A DNA stretch of 64,000 nucleotides from a virus (Duplodnaviria; Caudoviricetes). Shown in pieces: positions 5,607-54,444 of this stretch; the first letter of the stretch is position 1; every line of letters begins with the position of its first letter. Under the pieces are notes generated by a model. It was not told the origin of the DNA and did no database searches. It saw nothing but the letters and a program-made list of their open reading frames with translations. Where the stretch lies: positions 140,015 through 204,014 of IMG/VR virus record IMGVR_UViG_3300023218_000040, one strand, 5' to 3'. The position numbers and the translations under genes were made by a program.

Positions 5607-5740
5607 GTGCGTAATGCAATGTCCTGCGTCGATAGAAACGGAAGCTATGGTTACATGTTTATGCGTGATGGACACTCTTGACTAAAAATGTCTGCGGGTT
5701 TATACTACCCTTCCGACATAGCTTCCGTCTGGAGAATTCA

Positions 5741-7006
5741 GTGCGTTACTACAAGTTCCCGGAGATCGAAACCATCGATGATGTGCTTCCGGCCATTAAG
5801 GACCGGGATGAATTTGTCGTGGCCGAGCGAGATTGGGGAACGGTGATCGACTACCAGATCACCCTGCCGGATTCGTTCCCGTGTCCGGTTCGGGAGGCGC
5901 ATACCGCCAAGCAGCAATACAATTACATGGTGCGCCGTGAGTGCCGTGGCCTGAAGTTCGGCCTGAACGGCAAGCTGATCGCTCGTCCGTATCATAAGTT
6001 TTTCAATCTGGGCGAGCGTCCGGAGACCACCGACGACGAGCTTTCGTCTTTGGGTGCGTTCCATAAGAACTTCGTGATCATGCCGAAGCTGGATGGTTCA
6101 ATGATCCATCCGATCACTTGGAATGACACCATGTACTTTTGCACCCGTATGGGTATCACCGATGTTGCGAATCAGGCATACGAGTTCGCTGGAAACAACG
6201 GGATGTACGAGCGCTTTTCCTATGATATGTGCCAGCGTGGACTGACCCCAATCTTCGAGTGGTGCTCTCGCAAGCAACGCATCGTGCTGGACTATCCGCA
6301 GGACTCGTTAATCTTGACTGCCATTCGTGTGAATCGCACGGGTGAGTACCTGACCCGTGGCAAGATGCAGGCTTTGGCTGTTCCGTACGGGGTTCCGATG
6401 GTGGATCTGTACGACGGCTCATGGGACGGCATTGAGAAGTTTAGCAAACACGTTCGTGACATCGAAAACGCCGAGGGCTACGTCATTCGCTGGGATGACG
6501 GCAACATGATCAAGATGAAGGGTGAGTGGTACGTGGCGATCCATCGTGCCAAGGATTCCATCATGCACGAGAAGCGCATCATAGCTTTGATCTTGAACGA
6601 CAGTCTGGATGATGTGATGCCGCACCTGTTGCCGCAGGACTACGACCGTCTGGACCGGTACCGCAATGACTTCTGGCGTACCGTGGACCATGTGGAGAAA
6701 ACCCTGGACACCAAGGTTTCGATCTGTCGTTCGTTCACTGATGCCACTGGCATGGAAGAGAACGAGGCGAAGGGTTGGTTCGCACGTCAGGACGTGTCGC
6801 AGTACAAGGGGGTTCTGGCTCCGTGGAAGGGTCTTTTGTTCGCTACGTGGGACAAGAAGGATAAGACTCGGAACCTGTTCATCGATTACCTGCGCAAGCG
6901 GTTCTCGTTGGATGTAGATAACTCTAAGGCCAATGGCTCGCAGGCTGTAGTGGATGAGCTTCGTGACGCTTTCATGCTTCCGGAAAAGAAGTGGGAGGAT
7001 TACTGA
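5741..7006 (+). CDS. T4 Rnl1-like RNA ligase
   Basis: RPYHKFFNLGE, motif I KLDGS, FEW, EGYVI, KMKGEWY; GTG start after GGAGA. Confidence 0.85.
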   Translation: MRYYKFPEIETIDDVLPAIKDRDEFVVAERDWGTVIDYQITLPDSFPCPVREAHTAKQQYNYMVRRECRGLKFGLNGKLIARPYHKFFNLGERPETTDDELSSLGAFHKNFVIMPKLDGSMIHPITWNDTMYFCTRMGITDVANQAYEFAGNNGMYERFSYDMCQRGLTPIFEWCSRKQRIVLDYPQDSLILTAIRVNRTGEYLTRGKMQALAVPYGVPMVDLYDGSWDGIEKFSKHVRDIENAEGYVIRWDDGNMIKMKGEWYVAIHRAKDSIMHEKRIIALILNDSLDDVMPHLLPQDYDRLDRYRNDFWRTVDHVEKTLDTKVSICRSFTDATGMEENEAKGWFARQDVSQYKGVLAPWKGLLFATWDKKDKTRNLFIDYLRKRFSLDVDNSKANGSQAVVDELRDAFMLPEKKWEDY

Positions 7007-9396: not shown

Positions 9397-9440
9397 TGGT
9401 TAAATCCTCGAACGTGATGAACTTAAGTATTTATCAATCC

Positions 9441-9471
9441 TTGACTTATTCACTTATATGGGATATAAATA
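9441..9471 (+). promoter_or_regulatory. Overlapping sigma70 and T4-like late promoter for tmRNA
   Basis: TTGACT(9441)-17 bp-TATAAATA(9464). Confidence 0.8.
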
Positions 9472-9476
9472 AAAGT

Positions 9477-9836
9477 ACAGTTGCTTGAGCGAACACTTGA
9501 AGCTCTACGGACGGCGGTTCGATTCCGCCCATCTCCACTAAACGATGGACATAGAGTAGCAGTGAGTGTACACCGGTACTCTATTTTCATTAGCGGCAGA
9601 TAACGCACAACTGCCACATCTCTGGGGATGCCCTGGTTTTGACGTGGTGATGGATGGCTAGTAGTGAGACTGTCGGGTTAGACTACCCCCGTAAAGGTTC
9701 ACCCAAAGTATCTGCAAACGATGCTGTATATGACGAGGAGGTTCTTCCTCTCGCTGCATAAGCGGGAGCCAAGAATTCCTACTGCGGCTTAACAACCCGC
9801 AACGTCCGGGGTCTAACGAGCCTTGTTACCAAAATC
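9477..9836 (+). ncRNA. ssrA: Circularly permuted two-piece tmRNA; tag (A)ANDAVYDEEVLPLAA* at 9714-9761
   Basis: T-arm GGCGG-TTCGATT-CCGCC and acceptor 3' strand CATCTCC-A (9530-9537) precede the 5' strand GGGGATG (9624); G3.U70 Ala identity; CTGGTTTTGAC; tag reading frame ending AA-stop. Confidence 0.93.
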
Positions 9837-9840
9837 CTAG

Positions 9841-9867
9841 AAAGGGGAGCCTGTGTGCTCCCCTTTT
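9841..9867 (+). terminator. Intrinsic terminator after tmRNA
   Basis: GGGGAGC/GCTCCCC stem followed by TTTT. Confidence 0.8.
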
Positions 9868-15834: not shown

Positions 15835-17310
15835 ATGGTATACCCAATGGCAATGTCTGGCAGTATCGTGGACTCTCGGGGCAACCCGTTCTTCGGAGCG
15901 GGTAGCCCCGGCACTCCCGATGATGTCCACAAGTTCCAGGCGAAGCTCGCCAACCGAATGGGTAAGGCGTATCGCAAGGACGACTTCAAGGATGAGGATG
16001 CCTACAACGAGATGATCGTGGCAAAGGCCAGGATGCTCAAGGATCTGCCTTTCTGGGGCATCCTGGCCTTGACGGTCAAGCTGGTGGAAGTGGATGAGAT
16101 CCCAACACTGGCAACGGACGGCATTCACGTTTACTACAATGCCGAGTTCGTGAAGAAGCTCACCCGTGGCGAGCGTGTGTTCGCCATGGCCCACGAGATC
16201 TATCACTGTCTGTACGAACATGCAGGCAAGAACACTCGTGCCATGTCATACATTGGCTTCAATCCCAGTGAGCGTGACCCGGCAAAAGTCGCTGACATTC
16301 GAGATAAACTGGCACTGTGGAACTACGCTGCGGACTTCATCGTGAATGATGGTCTGGTGGAGGCACGTGTCGGTGAGTTCATCAAATCCATCGGAATCCT
16401 TCACGATGAGAAGTTTCGTGGATGGGCAGTGGAGGAGGTCTATGAACACCTTCAGCAGAACCCGAATGAGGTACCGAAGAACGCTCAGACGATGGACACA
16501 CATATCGAAGTTGAGGTCGTGCCTGATGATGAGATGGGCGAAGGTGACGGTGAACAGCCGCAGCCGGGTGATGGCAATGGTCCCATGAAGGTGCGAATCA
16601 AGCAGTCCGATTTCGAGAAGATGCAGAAAGACTGGCAAGACAACATGGTTTCGGCTGCGGCGGCTCAGAGGGAGCACGAGCAGCGCACTCGTTCCGCCGG
16701 TTGCATCCCGACCGGAGTACAGAGGCTCATCGATCAGCTTTCCAAGCCGAAAGTGGACTGGAAGCGTGCGCTGCGCCGCTACGTGATGGCGGTGACGCAT
16801 CATCGCTACAGCTTCAGCCGTCCGAACAAGTCTCTGTTTAGTAACGGCTGGACTCTACCTGGGTTCCGTGATCGAGTGCATGAGCTTGATATCGTGGTCA
16901 TGGTGGATACCAGTGGGTCCATCGGTCAGGAAGAATTGACAGCATTCGTGTCCGAACTTCAGGGTATCATGAATTCATGGAAGCGATACAAGATTCACGC
17001 ATGGTGCTTTGACGGCGCTGTCATCGAGGACAGCAAGGTCGAATTGGTCAAAGGCAGCCATGGTGCCTGGGACGACGTGAAGAAGTTCGCAGAGCGCATT
17101 GGTGGTGGCGGCGGTACTAACTTCGAAGTCAATTGGGATTATATGAAGGAGAACCGCATCAAGCCTCGGCTGGCTCTAATGCTCACGGACGGCATGCCGT
17201 TCGGTAGCTGGGGTGACGTGAGCTACTGCCCGACTATGTACATGATTATCGGGAATCCCCGAGCCGAGGGTCCGAAGGGTGCAATCACTATGCACTACGA
17301 GGATGCCTAA
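15835..17310 (+). CDS. DUF2201-type metallopeptidase + vWA domain protein
   Basis: TLATDG, HEIYH (HExxH), A.D..VN; MIDAS DTSGS, GGGGT.F, LTDG. Confidence 0.85.
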   Translation: MVYPMAMSGSIVDSRGNPFFGAGSPGTPDDVHKFQAKLANRMGKAYRKDDFKDEDAYNEMIVAKARMLKDLPFWGILALTVKLVEVDEIPTLATDGIHVYYNAEFVKKLTRGERVFAMAHEIYHCLYEHAGKNTRAMSYIGFNPSERDPAKVADIRDKLALWNYAADFIVNDGLVEARVGEFIKSIGILHDEKFRGWAVEEVYEHLQQNPNEVPKNAQTMDTHIEVEVVPDDEMGEGDGEQPQPGDGNGPMKVRIKQSDFEKMQKDWQDNMVSAAAAQREHEQRTRSAGCIPTGVQRLIDQLSKPKVDWKRALRRYVMAVTHHRYSFSRPNKSLFSNGWTLPGFRDRVHELDIVVMVDTSGSIGQEELTAFVSELQGIMNSWKRYKIHAWCFDGAVIEDSKVELVKGSHGAWDDVKKFAERIGGGGGTNFEVNWDYMKENRIKPRLALMLTDGMPFGSWGDVSYCPTMYMIIGNPRAEGPKGAITMHYEDA

Positions 17311-19435: not shown

Positions 19436-19492
19436 GTAACCGCCCCTATATCAGTAAATATGATGAACTATCTACGTAGGAGTATTTATAGG

Positions 19493-21364
19493 ATGGGTGG
19501 CAAGGCGTTTACATTGGAAGTTTTTTTGGAGAGAGCTAGAAAAATACATGGACTAACATATGATTACGGTTTGGTTAATTTTTCTTCCAGATTAGAAAAG
19601 GTATGCATTAAGTGTCCTATTCATGGAATTTTTGAACAAACTCCTGCAATGCACGTTCATTCTACTAAAGCAACTGGATGCCCAGAGTGTGGCAAAAATA
19701 GATTAAAGGAAGACAAGAAAGACTGGTGTTTGGATGAGATAAAAGAGTCTGCCAGATTAGTTCACGGTGACAAGTATGAATATCTTTCCATTATCAGGTC
19801 ATCGCAGAAGCGTTTATTGATTAGATGCAAGAAACACGGAGAATTCGAGCAAACGGTACATTCTCACTTAAAGGGGCACGGTTGTTTCAAATGCAGTAGA
19901 GCTAAGGTATCTGAGAAGTTGAAGGATTCTTATTTAGATATCATTAAGAAAGCCAGACTTGTGCATGGAACAATATTTGATTACCTGTCTTACGATAGAA
20001 CTACTGGAAAATTGCTTTTGGTTTGCAAGAAGCACGGTAAATTTCAGCAAAACAAAGGAGATCATCTGAACGGAGCAGGATGTCCGGAATGCGCCAAAAT
20101 CAAAAAATCAAGCGCACATAAGAAATCATACGAAGAGCTAATTGAACGGTTTAATACCATTCATGATGGCAAATATGAGTATGGATATTTTGATGATGTA
20201 TTATCCAAGGATGTAATCGATATCGTTTGTAAAACACACGGAACATTTCAACAAACCGTGAAATATCATTTACAAGGTCAAGGGTGTCCTAGGTGTGCTG
20301 GCAAGTACATGACCACGAATGATTTTATTGAAAAATCAAAACAGGTTCATGGAACAAAGTATGATTATTCTCTTGCGTCATACACTAAATCTACAGAAAG
20401 GGTAAAAATCATTTGTAAGAACCATGGAGAATTCTGGAGAACTCCGGGACAACACCTTTATAATAAAGCTGGTTGCCCAACCTGTATGCGCAAAGGCGCA
20501 GAAAAGGAGATATCTCTGTTTTTAATGGAATACGGCATACAGTTCAAAAGGAATAGTAGAAAGATTGTACCTCCATATGAATTGGACATTTATATACCGA
20601 AAAAGAAAATAGCCATAGAGTTTAATGGACTGTGGTGGCATACCGAGACTTTTGGTAAAAAATCCCGCACTTACCATTTGAACAAAACTGAGTTATGCAG
20701 AAAAAAAGGCATCAGGTTGATTCATATATTTGAAGACGAATGGGTGTTCAAGAAGGAGATATGCAAAAGCAGATTATTAAACCTATTAGGATTGTCGGTT
20801 CGTGGTGCTGGTGCGAGGAAACATGATATCAAGAGAATAGAATGGAAAGAAGCTAGCAAATTCCTGGAGGCGTATCATTTACAAAGTAAAGGGACCAGCG
20901 GCGGCATCAATTATGGTTCTTATTTGGATGGTCAACTAGTATCCGTCATGACCTTCGGAAAAAGACGATTAGCATTGGGAGTCTCCAAGGATACGACGGG
21001 TTCTTATGAGTTATTGCGCTTTGCTAGCAATGGGATTGTGTACCCTGGTATAGCATCCCGGTTATTATTCCGATTCATCACAGAACATGAAGTAACATCG
21101 ATAGTCAGTTATTCCGACAACAGGTGGAGCGACGGAAATCTATATCAAAAATTGGGATTCATTTACTCACATGAATCACCACCTAGTTACTTCTATGTCA
21201 AACAACACGACCATGAACGGTTTCATCGTTTCAATTTCAGAAAGCAAATCGTGGTCGAAAAGTTAGGCGGGAACCCTGCGCTCACAGAATACCAAAATAT
21301 GCTCAACTTTGGCTACGACAGAATATGGGACTGCGGAACTAAAGTCTGGGTATACACCCAATGA
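19493..21364 (+). CDS. Putative free-standing homing endonuclease: five DUF723-like Zn repeats + PD-(D/E)xK nuclease + GNAT-like C-terminus
   Basis: 5x H....YDY...C..HG.F.Q....H..G.GCP.C; ELDIYIP..IAIEFNGLWWH; LLRFAS...SYSDNRWS.GNLYQKLGF; AT-rich. Confidence 0.75.
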   Translation: MGGKAFTLEVFLERARKIHGLTYDYGLVNFSSRLEKVCIKCPIHGIFEQTPAMHVHSTKATGCPECGKNRLKEDKKDWCLDEIKESARLVHGDKYEYLSIIRSSQKRLLIRCKKHGEFEQTVHSHLKGHGCFKCSRAKVSEKLKDSYLDIIKKARLVHGTIFDYLSYDRTTGKLLLVCKKHGKFQQNKGDHLNGAGCPECAKIKKSSAHKKSYEELIERFNTIHDGKYEYGYFDDVLSKDVIDIVCKTHGTFQQTVKYHLQGQGCPRCAGKYMTTNDFIEKSKQVHGTKYDYSLASYTKSTERVKIICKNHGEFWRTPGQHLYNKAGCPTCMRKGAEKEISLFLMEYGIQFKRNSRKIVPPYELDIYIPKKKIAIEFNGLWWHTETFGKKSRTYHLNKTELCRKKGIRLIHIFEDEWVFKKEICKSRLLNLLGLSVRGAGARKHDIKRIEWKEASKFLEAYHLQSKGTSGGINYGSYLDGQLVSVMTFGKRRLALGVSKDTTGSYELLRFASNGIVYPGIASRLLFRFITEHEVTSIVSYSDNRWSDGNLYQKLGFIYSHESPPSYFYVKQHDHERFHRFNFRKQIVVEKLGGNPALTEYQNMLNFGYDRIWDCGTKVWVYTQ

Positions 21365-28247: not shown

Positions 28248-30002
28248 ATGAAACTCCTGGAGTTCCTGGACATCATTCGGGAGGATGACACCAGCGAACC
28301 CGGAAAGTTTGTTGGAGCCCGCCTTACCCGAGAATCTGAACGCAATCTCATGCACTGGATGCGTGAGACGGGCTTGCGTAAGCGTGTCCCACGTGCTCGT
28401 CTCCACATCACCGTCATTGGCGATAAGACTAGGAATTTCGATTGGACTCCCGCTGTATTTGATCCACCCCTAGAAGTCGATGCTTCTACGTATAAGCTTC
28501 AACGCTTCGGGGGTGAGAATGAGTGCGTCGTTCTGACGTTTTCCTGCCCTGAGCTAGAGAAACGTCATAACAAGGCACGTAAAGAACATGGTATCCATTA
28601 TGACCATGACCACTATCAGCCACACATTACTGTTAGTGTCGATCCCAAAGAACTGAATAACCTGGAGAGCCTCCTTCTTCCTACCTTCCCGCTGTATATC
28701 GACCGAGAATACGAGCAGCCTTGGGAACACAAATTCAATGAGAGTTCCGAGCGTCGTCGTAAAGAACGTACTAACGAAGATATTCTATTCGAGCGCAACC
28801 TGCTGAATCCTGAAATGGCGATAGATGCTGCTGATCGTTTCTCTGACTCTTTTGCTCAGTTCGGTGTGCATGTCGCTGAATGGGCAAAGAGATCCATGCG
28901 AAAGTATGTCATCAACAATTTCCCTGCTAAGAAAATCATACAGTACGAGTTGATGGATATCATCCCTCCTGACGCAGACAAACAGAAGATTGTTCAGGGT
29001 GCTGCTGTCATTCAATATCCAAACGACCCTGAAACATTCGGTATCCTGAGTGGACGCACTCAAGAGCAAACTCTGTCATTGCCAATCTGGGCTGCAAATG
29101 CTCTCCAACGGGGCGAAGAGATATACTTCCTGGACAGCAAAGCCATTTTTGGAAGGGGAGGACTGGATTATCAAACACGGATGGTTGCAGACTGGTTCAG
29201 AAATTTGTCACGTACTAATCCACAGTTGCTTGAGCCACATCGACTCAACAGAATGTCTTGGGCTCAAGCTCTTCAAGGTACCGAGAAATATCACGAAGAA
29301 CTCAAACGTAGAAAAGAAGCAGACATTGAGGAAGAGGGAGACAAAGAACTGTACCTGGACCTCGGACAGAATGGTCAATGGTGGAAGCTAACGGGACCAT
29401 CATGCCTTGACCGTGAAGGTAACTTGATGGGTCACTGTGTTGCAGATTACATCGATGATGTAGAAAGCGATGAAGCAATCATTCTGTCACTTCGTGACTC
29501 TAAAAACAATCCACATGTTACTGTGGAACTTCGTCCGTTTGAGATGAAGGATGCACAGGGTATTGCAATCGAACAAATCAAGGGTAAAGAAAACGAGCCC
29601 CCTGTGAAGAAGTATTGGCCGCAGGTTGAAGAATTACTCAAACACTTGAAGAGTGAGACCACCATCACGGCTGGTGATGGCATGGGAGAAGAAGACCTCT
29701 TAGCAATGGGTATCATCATTGTTCCATTTGATGACAACGCAATCATTCGAGTGTCAGCAACGGGAGATCCCGGTGACCCATTAGATTGGAGTATTGAAAT
29801 CAAGGGCGTGATTATCGACATGGGCAAGGAGATGGACTACGAGGAAGAAAGCACAGTGGAAGAATTCTCCAACGACAACAATTTGAATCCTCAAGAACTC
29901 ATCTACAACTTAGCCAAGACCGGTGAATATCGAATCGAGGGGTTTGATTCGGATCTCGTAGTCTATCCAACGTATTCATGGTCGATGAAAAAGATTGGTT
30001 AA
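28248..30002 (+). CDS. Fusion of an Acb1/gp57B-like 2H phosphoesterase and a PcfJ-like domain, probable virion protein
   Basis: VPRARLHITV and YQPHITVS HxT motifs and IDREYEQP match T4 gp57B as I recall it; EG..MGHCV..Y..SLRD..N.PHVT.E..QIKGK.N. Confidence 0.8.
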   Translation: MKLLEFLDIIREDDTSEPGKFVGARLTRESERNLMHWMRETGLRKRVPRARLHITVIGDKTRNFDWTPAVFDPPLEVDASTYKLQRFGGENECVVLTFSCPELEKRHNKARKEHGIHYDHDHYQPHITVSVDPKELNNLESLLLPTFPLYIDREYEQPWEHKFNESSERRRKERTNEDILFERNLLNPEMAIDAADRFSDSFAQFGVHVAEWAKRSMRKYVINNFPAKKIIQYELMDIIPPDADKQKIVQGAAVIQYPNDPETFGILSGRTQEQTLSLPIWAANALQRGEEIYFLDSKAIFGRGGLDYQTRMVADWFRNLSRTNPQLLEPHRLNRMSWAQALQGTEKYHEELKRRKEADIEEEGDKELYLDLGQNGQWWKLTGPSCLDREGNLMGHCVADYIDDVESDEAIILSLRDSKNNPHVTVELRPFEMKDAQGIAIEQIKGKENEPPVKKYWPQVEELLKHLKSETTITAGDGMGEEDLLAMGIIIVPFDDNAIIRVSATGDPGDPLDWSIEIKGVIIDMGKEMDYEEESTVEEFSNDNNLNPQELIYNLAKTGEYRIEGFDSDLVVYPTYSWSMKKIG

Positions 30003-41252: not shown

Positions 41253-41281
41253 TTGACAAACGGGATAGAGGAGAGTATAGT
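41253..41281 (+). promoter_or_regulatory. Near-consensus sigma70 promoter driving the long non-coding region
   Basis: TTGACA-17 bp-TATAGT. Confidence 0.8.
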
Positions 41282-41287
41282 ACACAC

Positions 41288-41922
41288 CATAGCAGAGAAT
41301 ACTATACAAAGAACCACGGATTCACAGGGATTAATAGGGTTGCGTTCGAATAATACACGCACCCGGCGACCTGGGGTAACGTCGCCATTCAAAGACCCCC
41401 TTGACATTTGGGTGGCTCTACGGACCTACCCGGCGACCTGAGCACGTCGCCTGACGAATAAAAGGCTCCCCGAATTTTTGAATTCGGTGGCATCTTCGAC
41501 TGAGACGGTACCGTGATACAGCACGGGGAAAGTGGAGAATAACTGTACGCCAACGTAGTCGAACCTCTGCCACCGACTTACAATCGGAGACGTACATCGT
41601 TTCCGGGCGACCTCGGCAAGTCGCCTGACGAAAAAACTGCCCTTTGAACACGGTCTTTTGTTTCTGGATTCGCCCATGGGATGACCGGGAAATCATAACC
41701 GGGTGTTAGCGAGCCTTGGGAAGAGACATCGAATGTAATGGAGTCCGACTAGCCATACAGTGTCGGTGACAGGCTGGAAAGACAGCGGTTTGAGACAAGT
41801 CGGGCCAAGAGCGGCCAACCTGACAGCCGGTGTGAGTCCGGGCAGCCCGACGACTTGAATTGCAGGGTGCCGCACCTGGGAACAGGTGGCCGCTGGAGGC
41901 TCGATCCCTCAACTCTGCTCCA
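41288..41922 (+). ncRNA. Candidate long structured ncRNA with three pseudoknot modules and a 3' tRNA-like CCA domain
   Basis: ~660 bp with no credible CDS; 3x GGCGAC/GTCGCC stems with covarying loop-downstream pairing; multiple long helices. Confidence 0.65.
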
Positions 41923-42642: not shown

Positions 42643-42866
42643 ACGTGACAACGACCGCTGAGGAGACATTCACCCTTGAGGACAGCCAGGACATGGCGCT
42701 TATGGTCTACCGTCGATTCGGCTACGATCTGTGCGCCGCCACGGCTGCCTGGAGGCGCATGCTTCAGAACAATGCCACTCGTGGGGATTATCTGGATCTC
42801 CTAATCGGTGCTGCGGCTCGTCAACCGGCAAATCGTGACATCGCTTCTATTCTCAGAAAGGATTAA
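42639..42866 (+). CDS. Hypothetical protein
   Basis: ATGA overlap, RBS AAGGAG. Confidence 0.55.
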   Translation: MNVTTTAEETFTLEDSQDMALMVYRRFGYDLCAATAAWRRMLQNNATRGDYLDLLIGAAARQPANRDIASILRKD

Positions 42867-43954
42867 ACCACAACCAGTCCGTGCGAGGGCAGTAGCTCTC
42901 GCAGGACGTAATGACGATAGTAGCTGGCTGCTTTCATGAATCGGTAGACCGGTAAGTTTAGAATATCGGAACTGGTCTTCATATTCTTGAAGTTGTTCCA
43001 CTGCTTATGCCAGTGAACTGAATTATACTCTGGCATTCCATCCTGAAACCCAAATTCGAACCTACGTGCTGCTTTCTTCCAGGCTTCGGCTCTGGTTTTT
43101 TTGTTACCCACGGTAGCCAAGATCCTCTCGATGCGCTGCTTGTGTCCCAAGAACCGCATCTTGCTCTTGCGATCATAAACCTCGGGATGAACATCTACAT
43201 ATTCAACTAGCTTGTCATAAACTGTCTCACACGCTTGCATGTATGTCTGTGGATTATTTCTCCAAATGCGTTCTGCATTCTTTGGATATTCTGGAATATA
43301 GCTCCACTCCAAGAATGGGATATCGGGATACGTAGATACTCCACCGTGGCCTAGTGCTCCACTATAGATTTCACTGACACCACTAATCACGGAACGAATA
43401 TTAGACAGCAGACCACCTTGGTAGCCGTATTCGTTGAACCATTCTGAAATAGTACGACCCAAAGCCATACGTACTACTTCTTCTGATTGTCTTAGCTTGA
43501 AGGAATCTCCACGAACACGATTTCGACGGGAAGACACTCCAGAGAATCTATAATGAGCGAAGGTATCCTGGAATGTATGAAGACTGATGCCCATCAATTC
43601 TGCATGGTAGTCAGCTTGGCAGTTGATACTGTTTTGTATCATCTCTTGTGCGATAAGAGAATTCTTTCTACAGAGGAGACGTTCGGTCCACGCTTCGCCC
43701 TGATTACCTGGAATGAAATGAAATGGAACCCAGATGAAACGTTGGTCATCCTCATCTCTATTTCTTAGATTGCCAGGGTGATGAGCGGTCGGGATAGCGA
43801 CTATTTTTCCGCCATCCTCGTGATCACCGATTTCACGAGCGGTATTATCATCAACGTACTGGGTCGAGTACGCTATGATGTGTGAAGTTTCAGCATTGAT
43901 CCCAGCGATACGTGATAAACAATACGTACCGTAATAATGCATGTCTACCTGCAT
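42863..43954 (-). CDS. DUF6765-like His-rich protein (possible Zn-dependent phospholipase C/P1 nuclease fold)
   Basis: MQ.DMHYYGTY, SQYVDD-like, TAHH, PFHFIPG, LHTFQDTFAH, LGHG. Confidence 0.6.
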   Translation of the reverse strand: MQVDMHYYGTYCLSRIAGINAETSHIIAYSTQYVDDNTAREIGDHEDGGKIVAIPTAHHPGNLRNRDEDDQRFIWVPFHFIPGNQGEAWTERLLCRKNSLIAQEMIQNSINCQADYHAELMGISLHTFQDTFAHYRFSGVSSRRNRVRGDSFKLRQSEEVVRMALGRTISEWFNEYGYQGGLLSNIRSVISGVSEIYSGALGHGGVSTYPDIPFLEWSYIPEYPKNAERIWRNNPQTYMQACETVYDKLVEYVDVHPEVYDRKSKMRFLGHKQRIERILATVGNKKTRAEAWKKAARRFEFGFQDGMPEYNSVHWHKQWNNFKNMKTSSDILNLPVYRFMKAASYYRHYVLRELLPSHGLVVV

Positions 43955-44001
43955 GGGCCTTTTTCTTGTTATTTGCCGTGGCTCTATGGCCACACAGGTA
44001 T

Positions 44002-44742
44002 TTAGTCTAAGAAGTTGCTGGAGAACTCCACTGCGTTTTCACTCTGGGCCTTGGTGTATTTGGTAAGTCCGGTCCAGTCGCCATCAAAGATCTCATCAGC
44101 CAATCCCCAATCCACTGTTTCCTTGGCAGTCAGAAATACATCGTCTTTTCGGCGCATCTGTTCCATGAGCATGTCAGCAATCCATTCTGATTTTTTCTTG
44201 GAGAACTTTCCACCTTGCTTCATGCGACGGACATAGATTTCCAACATCAGGCGGTTAGTATCTTTGTAGAACTCCATCCCGGACATGACAGTACGCATGT
44301 TTCCTTCATCCCCATAGGTTCCCTCATGAAACATGAAGTGCGAATTGGGCATCATGACTCTCTTAGTCACAGCCTGGAAAATGATGGAAGACATCGACCG
44401 GGCGTGAGAATAGTTCAGGATCGTGGTATCATGAGGATAGGAGATGAGCATATCGAACATGGCCATGCCTTCGATCCAATCTCCACCGTTGGTCTTCATG
44501 TGGATCACGACTGGACTTTGAGAGGTCTTCATACACAGATGCATATTCAAAACAAAGCGATTGGCCATCGTGAAATTGACACCGGGTTCAGCATCTCCAT
44601 AAGCATCAGTTCCGGCCAGATTGTGATCACCGAACAGATAGATGTGGTTGTTTTGAATATCCAGATGATATTCTTGCATGCGATAAACCGGATCTTCCGC
44701 CTTATTCAATTTCACCTTATCGGTATTGTCAAATTTAGCCAT
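44002..44742 (-). CDS. clpP: ClpP-like protease
   Basis: TNGGD, ARSMSS (Ser), FMFHEG (His), DVFLTAKE..WGLADEI. Confidence 0.8.
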   Translation of the reverse strand: MAKFDNTDKVKLNKAEDPVYRMQEYHLDIQNNHIYLFGDHNLAGTDAYGDAEPGVNFTMANRFVLNMHLCMKTSQSPVVIHMKTNGGDWIEGMAMFDMLISYPHDTTILNYSHARSMSSIIFQAVTKRVMMPNSHFMFHEGTYGDEGNMRTVMSGMEFYKDTNRLMLEIYVRRMKQGGKFSKKKSEWIADMLMEQMRRKDDVFLTAKETVDWGLADEIFDGDWTGLTKYTKAQSENAVEFSSNFLD

Positions 44743-45451: not shown

Positions 45452-46663
45452 ATGGCCACATTTTCAGTTCCAGTCGTCCGTATCGACGCCATCGAGGACC
45501 ATCCCAATGCCGACGCCTTGGAGATCGCCAAGGTGCGTGACTTCGATTGCATCACCCGCATCGGTGAGTACAAGGCTGGTGATATCGCTGTGTACATCCC
45601 CGAGGCTGCGGTCATGCCCGAGTGGCTGCTGAAGCGCATGGGTCTGTGGGATGAGGAGAAAGGCAAAGGCAAGCTGGCAGGCAAAGAAGGCAATCGTGTC
45701 AAGGCTGTCAAGCTGCGTGGCGTCGTGAGTCAGGGTCTGTTGTACCCGGTGTCTTGGGATGACCCAGATCTGTCTCAGGGAGAGACTGTCGGTCTGCCTC
45801 GTGTCGATCTGAGCGACGGCGAAAGCTACCTGCTGTATGACTGGAACGACGTGGACATCGAGACCATCAAGTCTCGTTGCATCGACGTGGACGTGGGAGA
45901 CGTGCTTGGCATCACCAAGTGGGAGCCTCCCATTCCGACGCACATGGCTGGTGAGGTCTGCAACATCTTCGGCCACACTCTGAAGTTCGACATCGAGAAC
46001 ATCCAGAAGCACAACGAGGTTCTGGTTTCGGGCGAGGAGGTCGTGATCACCGAGAAGCTTCACGGCACCTGGACGTGCTTTGGCTTCGATCCGGACCTGG
46101 ATCACGAGGAACTTCTTCACGGTGGCACCATCATCAACTCTAAGGGTCTGAGCGAGCAGGGTTTGGCATTCAAGTGGAACGACGCCAATGACAAGAACCT
46201 GTACGTTCGGATGTTCAAGCAGTACATGCTGGATACTGGTAGATGGAACAAGGTGATGGACATGGCCGTTCGTCGTGGCGAGCCCGTGTTCATCCTGGGT
46301 GAGACCTTCGGTCCTGGTGTACAAGATCTGCACTACGGTCTGAAGGAGAAGAGTTTTCTGGTGTTCGGCATCTACGTCGGCAAGCCGGGTCAGGGTCAAT
46401 ACCTCGATCACGTGGAGTTCAAGCAGACGTGCTCCTGGCTAGAGGTTTCCACGGTACCGGTCCTGTACCATGGTCCGTTCAGCATGGATACTGCCAAGAG
46501 CTTTCGTGACGGAAAGGATACCATCACCGGAGCCAACATTCGGGAGGGTATCGTGATTACTCCGGTTAAAGAACGAAACGATTTCGTGCTGGGTCGGGTG
46601 ACTCTCAAGATGATCAGCCCGGACTACCTGCTGCGGAAGGGCAATGCCACGGAATTCAACTGA
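45452..46663 (+). CDS. RNA ligase, DRB0094/Rnl2-like family with N-terminal OB-like domain
   Basis: HPNADALE, VYIPEAAV, VKAVKLRGVVSQGL, TEKLHGT, GETFG, REGIV, LK.ISPDYL. Confidence 0.88.
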   Translation: MATFSVPVVRIDAIEDHPNADALEIAKVRDFDCITRIGEYKAGDIAVYIPEAAVMPEWLLKRMGLWDEEKGKGKLAGKEGNRVKAVKLRGVVSQGLLYPVSWDDPDLSQGETVGLPRVDLSDGESYLLYDWNDVDIETIKSRCIDVDVGDVLGITKWEPPIPTHMAGEVCNIFGHTLKFDIENIQKHNEVLVSGEEVVITEKLHGTWTCFGFDPDLDHEELLHGGTIINSKGLSEQGLAFKWNDANDKNLYVRMFKQYMLDTGRWNKVMDMAVRRGEPVFILGETFGPGVQDLHYGLKEKSFLVFGIYVGKPGQGQYLDHVEFKQTCSWLEVSTVPVLYHGPFSMDTAKSFRDGKDTITGANIREGIVITPVKERNDFVLGRVTLKMISPDYLLRKGNATEFN

Positions 46664-54076: not shown

Positions 54077-54444
54077 GTGCAGGTATTCAAGCTATCGCTC
54101 GGCCCATTTTATTGGGAGAGAGGAAGTTCGGGACACCATAGTGCAGACCAGTGGGGAAATCCCACCCGGCGTAATGCTGAGGACAAGTGCCATAGAGACA
54201 GACAGCCGATGGCTCACCCTTCGGGTAGGTTGAGCACAGGCAATAGGTGGAACGGTGGTGTAAGAGACCACACGTAGCATGGCGACATGTTGCGGAAGCA
54301 AACTCTGGTCGGTGCAACTCCAGACAGCTCTGATGACTCGGCACGACGAGGGGCGGGTAGGGGGCGAAGAGGGGTGCTGAAAAGCATACCCCAAGATGAA
54401 TGATAGCTCTTGACAGAATCCCGGCTATAGATATCGTAAAGCAC
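54077..54444 (+). ncRNA. rnpB: RNase P RNA, bacterial type A
   Basis: P2 AGCTATC/GATAGCT, GAGGAAGTTCGGG, AGTGCCATAGAGA, CGATGGC, GGTAAGAG-like, AGATGAATGA, ACAGAATCCCGGCTATA. Confidence 0.92.

Follow-up and report, generated by a model that had tools for sequence, protein, structure and literature searches.

A putative pseudoknot-rich non-coding RNA with a tRNA-Gly-like 3' end in the tRNA island of an uncultured jumbo phage

What is encoded in a gene-free stretch of some 630 nucleotides (nt) in the tRNA island of a large phage, and how does the molecule made from it end? The stretch, positions 41,288 to 41,922, belongs to a 64,000-nt window, the whole DNA analysed here (IMG/VR record IMGVR_UViG_3300023218_000040, positions 140,015 to 204,014; positions below are those of the window unless a contig is named). 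An earlier note on this DNA had described it as a non-coding structured RNA of about 630 nt behind a sigma-70 promoter, composed of three hairpin-pseudoknot modules. Our analysis showed, as far as sequence can, a promoter-driven, non-coding and pseudoknot-rich RNA ending in a tRNA-Gly-like UCCA minihelix. We read it as a member of a new family of ornate phage non-coding RNAs (ncRNAs) of 0.48-1.1 kb that would be cut by RNase P at the minihelix and would use their modules as docking rods, and we give this reading a probability of roughly 0.45.

Promoter, homologous loci and pseudoknot modules

Relatives of the ncRNA were reached through its neighbours, namely the 109-amino-acid (aa) ORFan protein encoded downstream, which led to metagenomic contigs, and, for one locus, the DUF6765 protein; blastn with the ncRNA itself gave no match in 50,697 GenBank phages. 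The contigs encoding relatives of the small protein preserve the local gene order. Two of them, L012 and L013, are nearly identical to the window. A diverged group, consisting of L014 (with L015-L018), L025, L019 and L061, has at this position a gap of 0.5-1.1 kb without genes, and L026 and L027 supply partial 3' ends. The members range from 480 to 1120 nt, with 634 nt in the window, and nucleotide similarity between the window and its relatives is restricted to the module, an element that we call X, and the last 60 nt.

The earlier description of a non-coding structured transcript held up. A near-consensus promoter precedes the ncRNA (Table 1), with a probable transcription start at about 41288-41289, and promoters of sigma-70 type occupy the equivalent place in all full-length relatives (L019, TTGACA-17-TATAAT; L025, TTGACT-17-TATAAT; L014, TTGCAT-17-TATACT; L061, TTGACA-17-TAGGAT). 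The plus strand folds better than shuffled sequences (z = -3.4), unlike the minus strand (z = -1.45). The ncRNA showed no conserved reading frame: translated matches to the homologues are limited to the stretches of nucleotide similarity (module, element X and tRNA-like end) and fall in all six frames alike, and conservation is therefore at the level of the RNA rather than of a protein. Furthermore, the four substitutions that separate the ncRNA from L012/L013 all fall at positions unpaired in the model.

The stem GGCGAC/GTCGCC indeed occurs three times, at 41365, 41432 and 41606. The pattern GGCGAC-N6-12-GTCGCC is expected 0.02 times by chance in the window, and these three hairpins are its sole copies in the whole 204-kb record. 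Each belongs to a module in which a leading hairpin (H0) is followed by the GGCGAC stem (stem 1, S1), the loop of which pairs past an A-rich linker with a downstream tail to give a second stem (stem 2, S2). The modules are irregularly spaced, by 67 and 174 nt, and a single copy is present in each of six diverged homologues (L014, L019, L025, L026, L027 and L061). L019, L026 and L027 share the stem 1 and linker sequence of module 2, while L014, L025 and L061 have it with compensatory changes. Stem 1 is GGCGAC/GUCGCC in most copies, CGCGAC/GUCGCG in L014 and L025, and GGCGUC/GACGCC in L061, the variants being double compensatory changes from G-C to C-G and from A-U to U-A. The linker is almost invariant across copies (UGACGAAUAAAAG and close variants).

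Stem 2, on the other hand, takes five different sequences, and in 8/8 distinct copies the loop is complementary to its own tail; with shuffled loops, all eight were matched in none of 20,000 trials. Matches between the loop of one copy and the tail of another are nearly confined to copies with the same or a similar stem 2, with two chance exceptions (the loops of the third window module and of L014 with the tail of L027). These pairs were counted by a custom script, since MAFFT structurally misaligned the modules as well as the L019 minihelix. The covarying loop-tail pairs proposed from the three window copies are thereby borne out, by reading of the sequences and by script, both within these copies and across the diverged phages. 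The hairpin reported directly before each stem is likewise present without any spacer, with RNAfold energies of -8.6 to -10.5 kcal/mol, and in eight of nine copies the base at which H0 closes is the one immediately preceding stem 1, as expected for a coaxial H0-S1-S2 stack, the H0 sequences being unrelated. Stem 2 and H0 thus appear to be constrained just to pair, whereas stem 1 and the linker appear to be constrained in sequence and may form a specific recognition surface.

The tRNA-like minihelix at the 3' end

The three modules, although correctly described, turned out to be an incomplete account of the RNA, which also contains two more predicted pseudoknots, the three-part element X at 41799-41851, and a tRNA-like end. 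The end coordinate given previously, 41922, is in fact the A of the CCA of a 61-nt minihelix that had itself been overlooked. It has neither a D arm nor an anticodon loop, both being replaced by a single 10-bp hairpin with a GGAA tetraloop, and it is called by neither the Rfam tRNA model nor ARAGORN. With its acceptor stem and T arm stacked to about 12 bp, a T loop of 7 nt and an NCCA at the 3' end, it has the features of a mascRNA-type minihelix.

A covariance model of this element (R1), built from four sequences, found exactly one copy in the 204-kb record and one per relative. In the R1-guided alignment, which was fitted to the model and is hence biased toward it, 96.3% of the cells are paired, 7 of the 20 pairs have both partners changed, and the observed values are reached by none of 500 shuffles; when the partners are slid by 1-3 columns, the pairing falls to 41-54%. 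The acceptor changes are also readable in the raw sequences, with C-G, U-A and A-U at position 2, and A-U, C-G, G-C and U-A at position 3, and the local closure of the acceptor covaries in eight distinct sequences. The minimum free energy fold of the window RNA instead joins the two transcript ends (GCAGAG at 41292 with CTCTGC at 41913), in competition with the local acceptor pairing. We set this distal closing stem aside, because an equivalent 5' strand is absent from the homologues whereas the local pairing covaries; judged from sequence, the complementarity of the ends could be due to chance or to a lineage-specific switch.

The phage's own tRNA-Gly(tcc) has a very similar acceptor (GCGGGAU...AUCCCGC-U-CCA-AUC vs GCGGGGU...ACCCCGC-U-CCA in L019). 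The minihelix carries U73, G1-C72 and C2-G71, to which L014 and L019 add G3-C70; these four features are the bacterial glycine acceptor set (PMC9976931). The L014 and L025 minihelices have an 8-bp acceptor and a larger interior, and that of L021/L022 ends in ACCA.

Family identity, processing and rival explanations

A match to a known Rfam family had been named beforehand as the result that would speak against a new RNA, and no family matches. Searches with 4227 Rfam models gave no match for the RNA in the window at gathering thresholds, in its region at E <= 10, or in the homologous gaps of L014 and L019 at E <= 1, and these searches included the GOLLD, ROOL, OLE, HEARO and raiA models as well as those for exonuclease-resistant RNAs (xrRNAs), riboswitch pseudoknots and antitoxins. 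Among bacteria and phages, structured ncRNAs of more than 500 nt are a rarity, the known few being OLE, GOLLD, ROOL, HEARO and raiA, and such RNAs have been rewarding to study, latterly as RNA-only cages. The kind of molecule is already known, as a large ornate phage RNA beside tRNA genes, while the family has a distinct architecture without a model match. Computational support for the structure is solid.

The closest kin in kind are GOLLD and ROOL, large pseudoknotted phage RNAs found near tRNA islands and sometimes linked to a tRNA (bioRxiv 10.1101/2024.12.08.627333). Like them, the present family consists of large ncRNAs (0.5-1.1 kb) in a phage tRNA island with multiple pseudoknots (three supported and two predicted here), a covalently linked tRNA(-like) unit, as sometimes occurs in the GOLLD linker, and a more conserved 3' part behind a variable 5' part. 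It differs from those families, as they have been described, in its repeated module of H0 and GGCGAC pseudoknot and in its anticodon-less CCA minihelix.

In our preferred reading, host RNA polymerase would transcribe the ncRNA from the near-consensus sigma-70 promoter, and the minihelix would serve as a handle for processing and stability. Since an acceptor/T-arm stack with a 3' NCCA is a minimal substrate of bacterial RNase P, the enzyme would be expected to cut between 41861 and 41862, with 3' trimming halting at the CCA. The products would be a pseudoknot-rich RNA of about 573 nt, a tRNA-like RNA of 61 nt and the downstream mRNA. The phage encodes its own RNase P RNA, which fits this picture but is no proof of it. 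More tentatively, the H0-S1-S2 stack would be a rigid rod, and its conserved face, stem 1 with the linker in its groove, a repeated docking site that has been tripled in this phage. As partner, one may think of a protein, such as a host factor or the small protein encoded in synteny, or else of another copy of the RNA, as in GOLLD/ROOL assemblies; the data are compatible with a docking platform or a sponge.

The logic of such processing would be that of mitochondrial tRNA punctuation and of MALAT1/mascRNA. The 3' end of MALAT1 arises from RNase P cleavage at a tRNA-like element, aided by an extended acceptor stem (PMC8457004). As in MALAT1/mascRNA, MEN-beta/menRNA and mitochondrial punctuation, a long ncRNA is immediately followed by a tRNA-like element of about 60 nt with an acceptor and a T arm but a reduced body, and there is downstream RNA on the same transcript; as in MALAT1, leader-trailer pairing in L027 and L061 lengthens the acceptor helix to 10-11 bp, which may, by analogy, be the same aid to cleavage (PMC8457004). 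However, all of these are eukaryotic nuclear or organellar RNAs and not homologous, with RNase P cleavage only presumed in the phage case. Moreover, the predicted new 3' end has no triple helix of the ENE (element for nuclear expression) type, and the CCA here is encoded in the genome. A further likeness is to the 3' tRNA-like structures of plant RNA viruses (turnip yellow mosaic virus, TYMV; tobacco mosaic virus, TMV; brome mosaic virus, BMV), where an aminoacylatable-looking tRNA mimic also stands at the end behind a series of H-type pseudoknots; there, however, the structures belong to RNA virus genomes and the acceptor arm is a pseudoknot, whereas here a DNA phage transcript has an ordinary acceptor helix and internal modules.

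If the preferred reading is true, the RNA would provide a concrete case of tRNA-type punctuation in a long phage RNA and a handle on the role of the large RNAs of tRNA islands. A variable hairpin, a pseudoknot presenting a conserved face, and a tRNA-Gly-like minihelix with CCA make up a clear modular grammar, which occurs beside genes for RNase P RNA, tmRNA, tRNAs and RNA ligases, and the change in module count from one to three between related phages is a natural dosage experiment for a binding partner.

Several points weigh against this reading. The CCA is not universal, because L027 (266-326) and L061 (7937-7996, minus strand) have no free NCCA. Position 54 of the T loop is C in all eight sequence variants (CUCGAUC, CUCGAAU, CUCGGAU), where canonical T loops have U/T. 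Most of the RNA (41289-41336, 41469-41584 and 41642-41798) is without an alignable homologue, and its structure there is prediction only. The covariation counts ignore kinship and come from 5-6 independent lineages, which gives modest statistical power. Pfam, PHROG, Foldseek and ESM Atlas searches yielded no hint of RNA binding for the syntenic small protein. Finally, RNase P cleavage, CCA trimming and the binding partner are all things that we infer from sequence.

[quoted passage not shown] Type III antitoxins are near-identical direct repeats with a fixed unit of 34-45 nt, processed by the toxin itself. The modules here do form tandem pseudoknots with A-rich linkers, their conserved sequence face implies a sequence-specific partner, and their number has been raised to three in this phage alone. 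At least three RNA-ligase-family genes in the phage are also consistent with an arms race over RNA damage. There is precedent as well: repeated pseudoknot units with A-rich segments make up the ToxI/CptI antitoxins, and the pseudo-ToxI RNA of phage PhiTE mimics ToxI (PMC3475682). U73 together with G71 on tRNA-Gly is the signature read by the TacT toxin (PMC9976931), and the minihelix has U73, G1-C72 and C2-G71. However, the copies are inexact, with H0 and stem 2 differing between them, follow no fixed period and are single in the relatives, on which grounds we rejected a ToxI-like repeat array. No ToxN/CptN-like gene lies nearby to serve as toxin partner, and no known antitoxin model matches.

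Somewhat less probable again is that the minihelix, with its glycine acceptor signature and encoded CCA, is a working tRNA-Gly derivative, which would be cut by RNase P, the RNase P RNA of the phage included, and then charged or otherwise engaged by the tRNA machinery. The released pseudoknot-rich body would serve the phage takeover of translation or RNA metabolism, either as a scaffold with many binding sites or as an assembly like those of GOLLD/ROOL. If so, this would be the first long RNA of the MALAT1/mascRNA type, with a 3' end made by RNase P, in a bacterial virus.

It is improbable, to a slightly greater degree, that the RNA is a giant structured leader, a 5' untranslated region (UTR) that is never released and acts in cis on the downstream small-protein operon by controlling its stability or translation. 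A terminator is missing from the 29 nt that separate the CCA from the next gene, and in all loci the MATKTTKL... gene is found in synteny with the RNA, the spacer being conserved. In L019, however, the small-protein gene follows an intervening, different 69-aa gene and has its own TTGACT-17-TAGGAT promoter (in the region 2490-2550) with the same conserved 5' UTR. This shows that the spacer belongs to the small-protein gene and that the RNA is separable from it, and the leader explanation is weakened accordingly. Furthermore, a tRNA-like end with an encoded CCA is the hallmark of a processed product, and a length of 480-1120 nt with gain and loss of modules is atypical of leaders.

The leading idea of the earlier note, that the modules are exonuclease roadblocks yielding nested small RNAs, has no specific support and now seems very unlikely. 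Compact stacked pseudoknots can stall exonucleases, and three copies lie on one transcript; no xrRNA model matches, however, and the relatives carry one module, near the 3' end in L014, L025 and L061, so that nested products cannot be the conserved function. In addition, the beta-type permuted tmRNA of the phage hints at a betaproteobacterial host, and betaproteobacteria, to our knowledge, generally have no RNase J.

A divergent tmRNA-like molecule, entering stalled ribosomes through its tRNA-like domain, is already largely refuted and barely credible. The likeness is real in that both combine a tRNA-like domain that has a T arm and a CCA but no anticodon with several H-type pseudoknots, the third loops of which are A-rich, and both are encoded among tRNA genes in large phages; the ClpP gene lies 2 kb away, and a GGAUUCG motif resembles what we take to be the D-loop analogue of tmRNA. 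However, the acceptor is closed locally and not by the 5' and 3' ends of the RNA, and the 3:70 pair, A-U in the window, varies among G-C, C-G and U-A in the homologues but is never G.U. There is no tag reading frame and no conserved frame of any kind; the UAA inside the linker (GACGAAUAA) is missing from module 3 of the window, L027 and L061 and hence is not a tag-frame stop. No tmRNA model matches at E <= 10, ARAGORN in its tmRNA and intron-tolerant tRNA modes at lowered thresholds made just implausible calls, and the phage already has a separate, canonical permuted tmRNA with G3.U70 and a ...LPLAA tag. We thus rejected the tmRNA identity. An array of ligand-binding aptamers is hardly more credible: small H-type pseudoknots with conserved linker nucleotides, which the modules share, are typical of the preQ1, SAM-II and guanidine-III riboswitch classes, but no riboswitch model matches, the modules lie in the middle of a long RNA with no expression platform, the downstream genes are ORFans, none of them metabolic or a transporter, and nothing specific speaks for it.

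Other parts of the RNA and the surrounding island

The coordinates of all features are collected in Table 1.

Table 1. Predicted features of the ncRNA and neighbouring genes in the 64,000-nt window
Feature	Position	Strand	Details
Sigma-70-type promoter	41253-41281	+	TTGACA (41253-58), 17-nt spacer, TATAGT (41276-81); 11/12 consensus positions
5' leader	41289-41336	+	GCAGAGA (41292-98) complementary to 3' acceptor strand 41912-18
Module 1	41337-41399	+	H0 41337-64; S1 GGCGAC 41365-70 / GUCGCC 41381-86; S2 GGGGU 41373-77 / ACCCC 41395-99; linker AUUCAAAG
Module 2	41410-41468	+	H0 41410-31; S1 41432-37 / 41446-51; S2 GAGC 41440-43 / GCUC 41465-68; linker UGACGAAUAAAAG
Central domain	41469-41584	+	hairpin 41470-87; long-range stem GGUGGCA 41486-92 / UGCCACC 41568-74
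Predicted fourth H-type pseudoknot	41511-41547	+	CCGUG-AUACAG-CACGG, A-rich linker, CUGUA; this sequence only
Module 3	41585-41641	+	H0 41585-605; S1 41606-11 / 41620-25; S2 GGCA 41615-18 / UGCC 41638-41; linker UGACGAAAAAAC
CUGGAUUCGCCC motif	41664-41675	+	also in L014 and L019; variant in L025
Predicted fifth pseudoknot	41745-41776	+	CCGAC/GUCGG, loop UAGCC pairing to GGCUG; no direct covariation for the window version
Element X	41799-41851	+	outer stem GUCGGGC/GCCCGAC around 21-nt internal loop and inner hairpin CCGG-UGUGAGU-CCGG
tRNA-like minihelix, 61 nt	41862-41922	+	acceptor 7 bp, 41862-68 / 41912-18; 10-bp hairpin with GGAA loop 41869-93; one linking U; T arm 41895-911, loop CUCGAUC (41900-41906), T stem 4-5 bp; U73 41919; CCA 41920-22
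Small ORFan protein gene, 109 aa	41952-42281	+	MATKTTKLAGPD... (MATKTTKL...); ribosome binding site GGAGA 41938-42; syntenic with the RNA in every homologous locus
DUF6765 protein gene	42863-43993	-	adjacent to ClpP gene
ClpP protease gene	44002-44742	-	adjacent to DUF6765 gene
RNA-ligase-family genes, three	5678-7006, 28248-30002, 45452-46663	+	
tmRNA, circularly permuted, two-piece	9427-9867	+	95 bits on RF04321 (9477-9761), 69 bits on beta-proteobacterial model
RNase P RNA, bacterial type A, full-length	54082-54439	+	168 bits, model positions 1-367; about 12 kb downstream of the ncRNA

Within the central domain, the two substitutions relative to L012 (41532 and 41536) both fall inside the A-rich linker of the predicted fourth pseudoknot. 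It is a matter of speculation whether the CUGGAUUCGCCC motif is a D-loop-like partner of the T loop. The fifth pseudoknot is a weakly supported model prediction, and the relatives have, at about the corresponding place, a different pseudoknot, GUCC/GGAC with GGCUCC/GGAGCC. Element X is similar to L026 and L019 by blastn, with a conserved internal loop (AAGAGCGRCCANCCUKACAG) and stems that differ compensatorily, being GUCACGCG/CGCGUGAC and CCAG/CCUGG in L026 and GCUGCGG/CCGCAGC in L019.

At the 5' end, the relatives start with a domain that is absent from the window RNA, in which a purine-rich strand (GAGAGAUGGACGAGG) and an anti-Shine-Dalgarno-like pyrimidine run (CUCCUCUCCUCUCUCC) pair with each other on either side of an inner hairpin (L014:4950-5050, L019:1103-1190, L025:1047-1135 and L061:8415-8340, the last on the minus strand). 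L061 also has, at approximately 8245-8225 and 8115-8095 (minus strand), two hairpins with the common loop UAACCAAU and covarying stems, GUAGG/CCUAC and GUGGG/CCCAC, which look like another repeated motif. In L019 (845-1025), two tRNA genes and a terminator lie directly before the promoter of the RNA.

Apart from this phage lineage, the RNA family was found just in a few metagenomic contigs. Scans of IMG/VR with a flanking protein, DUF6765, the small-protein alignment, and exact T-arm and module patterns gave no further homologue, and tblastn of the small protein and DUF6765 gave nothing in the 50,697 GenBank phages. A species-genome scan with an 18-mer of the module returned 32 hits, about the number expected by chance, none of which forms a module; 31 have no upstream GGCGAC strand, and the remaining one (L049) has a nearby GGCGAC but a 3-nt loop. 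Model R1 had no match in two other contigs with DUF6765 and ClpP (L060 and L062) or in the four closest cultured jumbo relatives, Phosso, Atu_ph07, SCTP-2 and XaC1, the latter search being made without a positive control genome.

The small downstream protein is not a paralogue of the product of the next gene. Pfam, PHROGs and ESM Atlas gave no lead for it, Foldseek found nothing in the PDB at E <= 0.001, and its AlphaFold model is mediocre (predicted local distance difference test score 67). The adjacent ClpP and DUF6765 genes are kept beside the ncRNA in related contigs, and the pair is also present in contigs without the ncRNA.

The window is the last 64 kb of the 204-kb virus record, which has a CheckV completeness of about 55%. 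Since its baseplate wedge protein shares 31-37% identity with the counterparts in jumbo myoviruses (350-490 kb) such as Atu_ph07, Phosso, SCTP-2, XaC1 and GAP32, we assign the source to an uncultured jumbo phage. All of the Rfam-detectable RNA genes of the record, consisting of 12 tRNAs, the tmRNA and the RNase P RNA, are confined to the window, with none in the first 140 kb (L002-L008). This island has the ncRNA at its middle, with tRNAs at 38.9-39.1 kb on one side and at 45.1 kb on the other. The RNase P RNA has no blastn match among the 50,697 GenBank phage records, and the Rfam model detects none in the four cultured jumbo relatives; such a gene seems out of the ordinary in a phage and bears on the tRNA-like element. 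The tmRNA has G3.U70, and its tag according to the Rfam alignment is ANDAVYDEEVLPLAA (...LPLAA); this reading was used because the tag peptide printed by ARAGORN is a mis-call. Finally, the record contains several large genes of the HNH/homing-endonuclease family, at 15835-17310 and 19460-21364 in the window and at L007:12146-13633.

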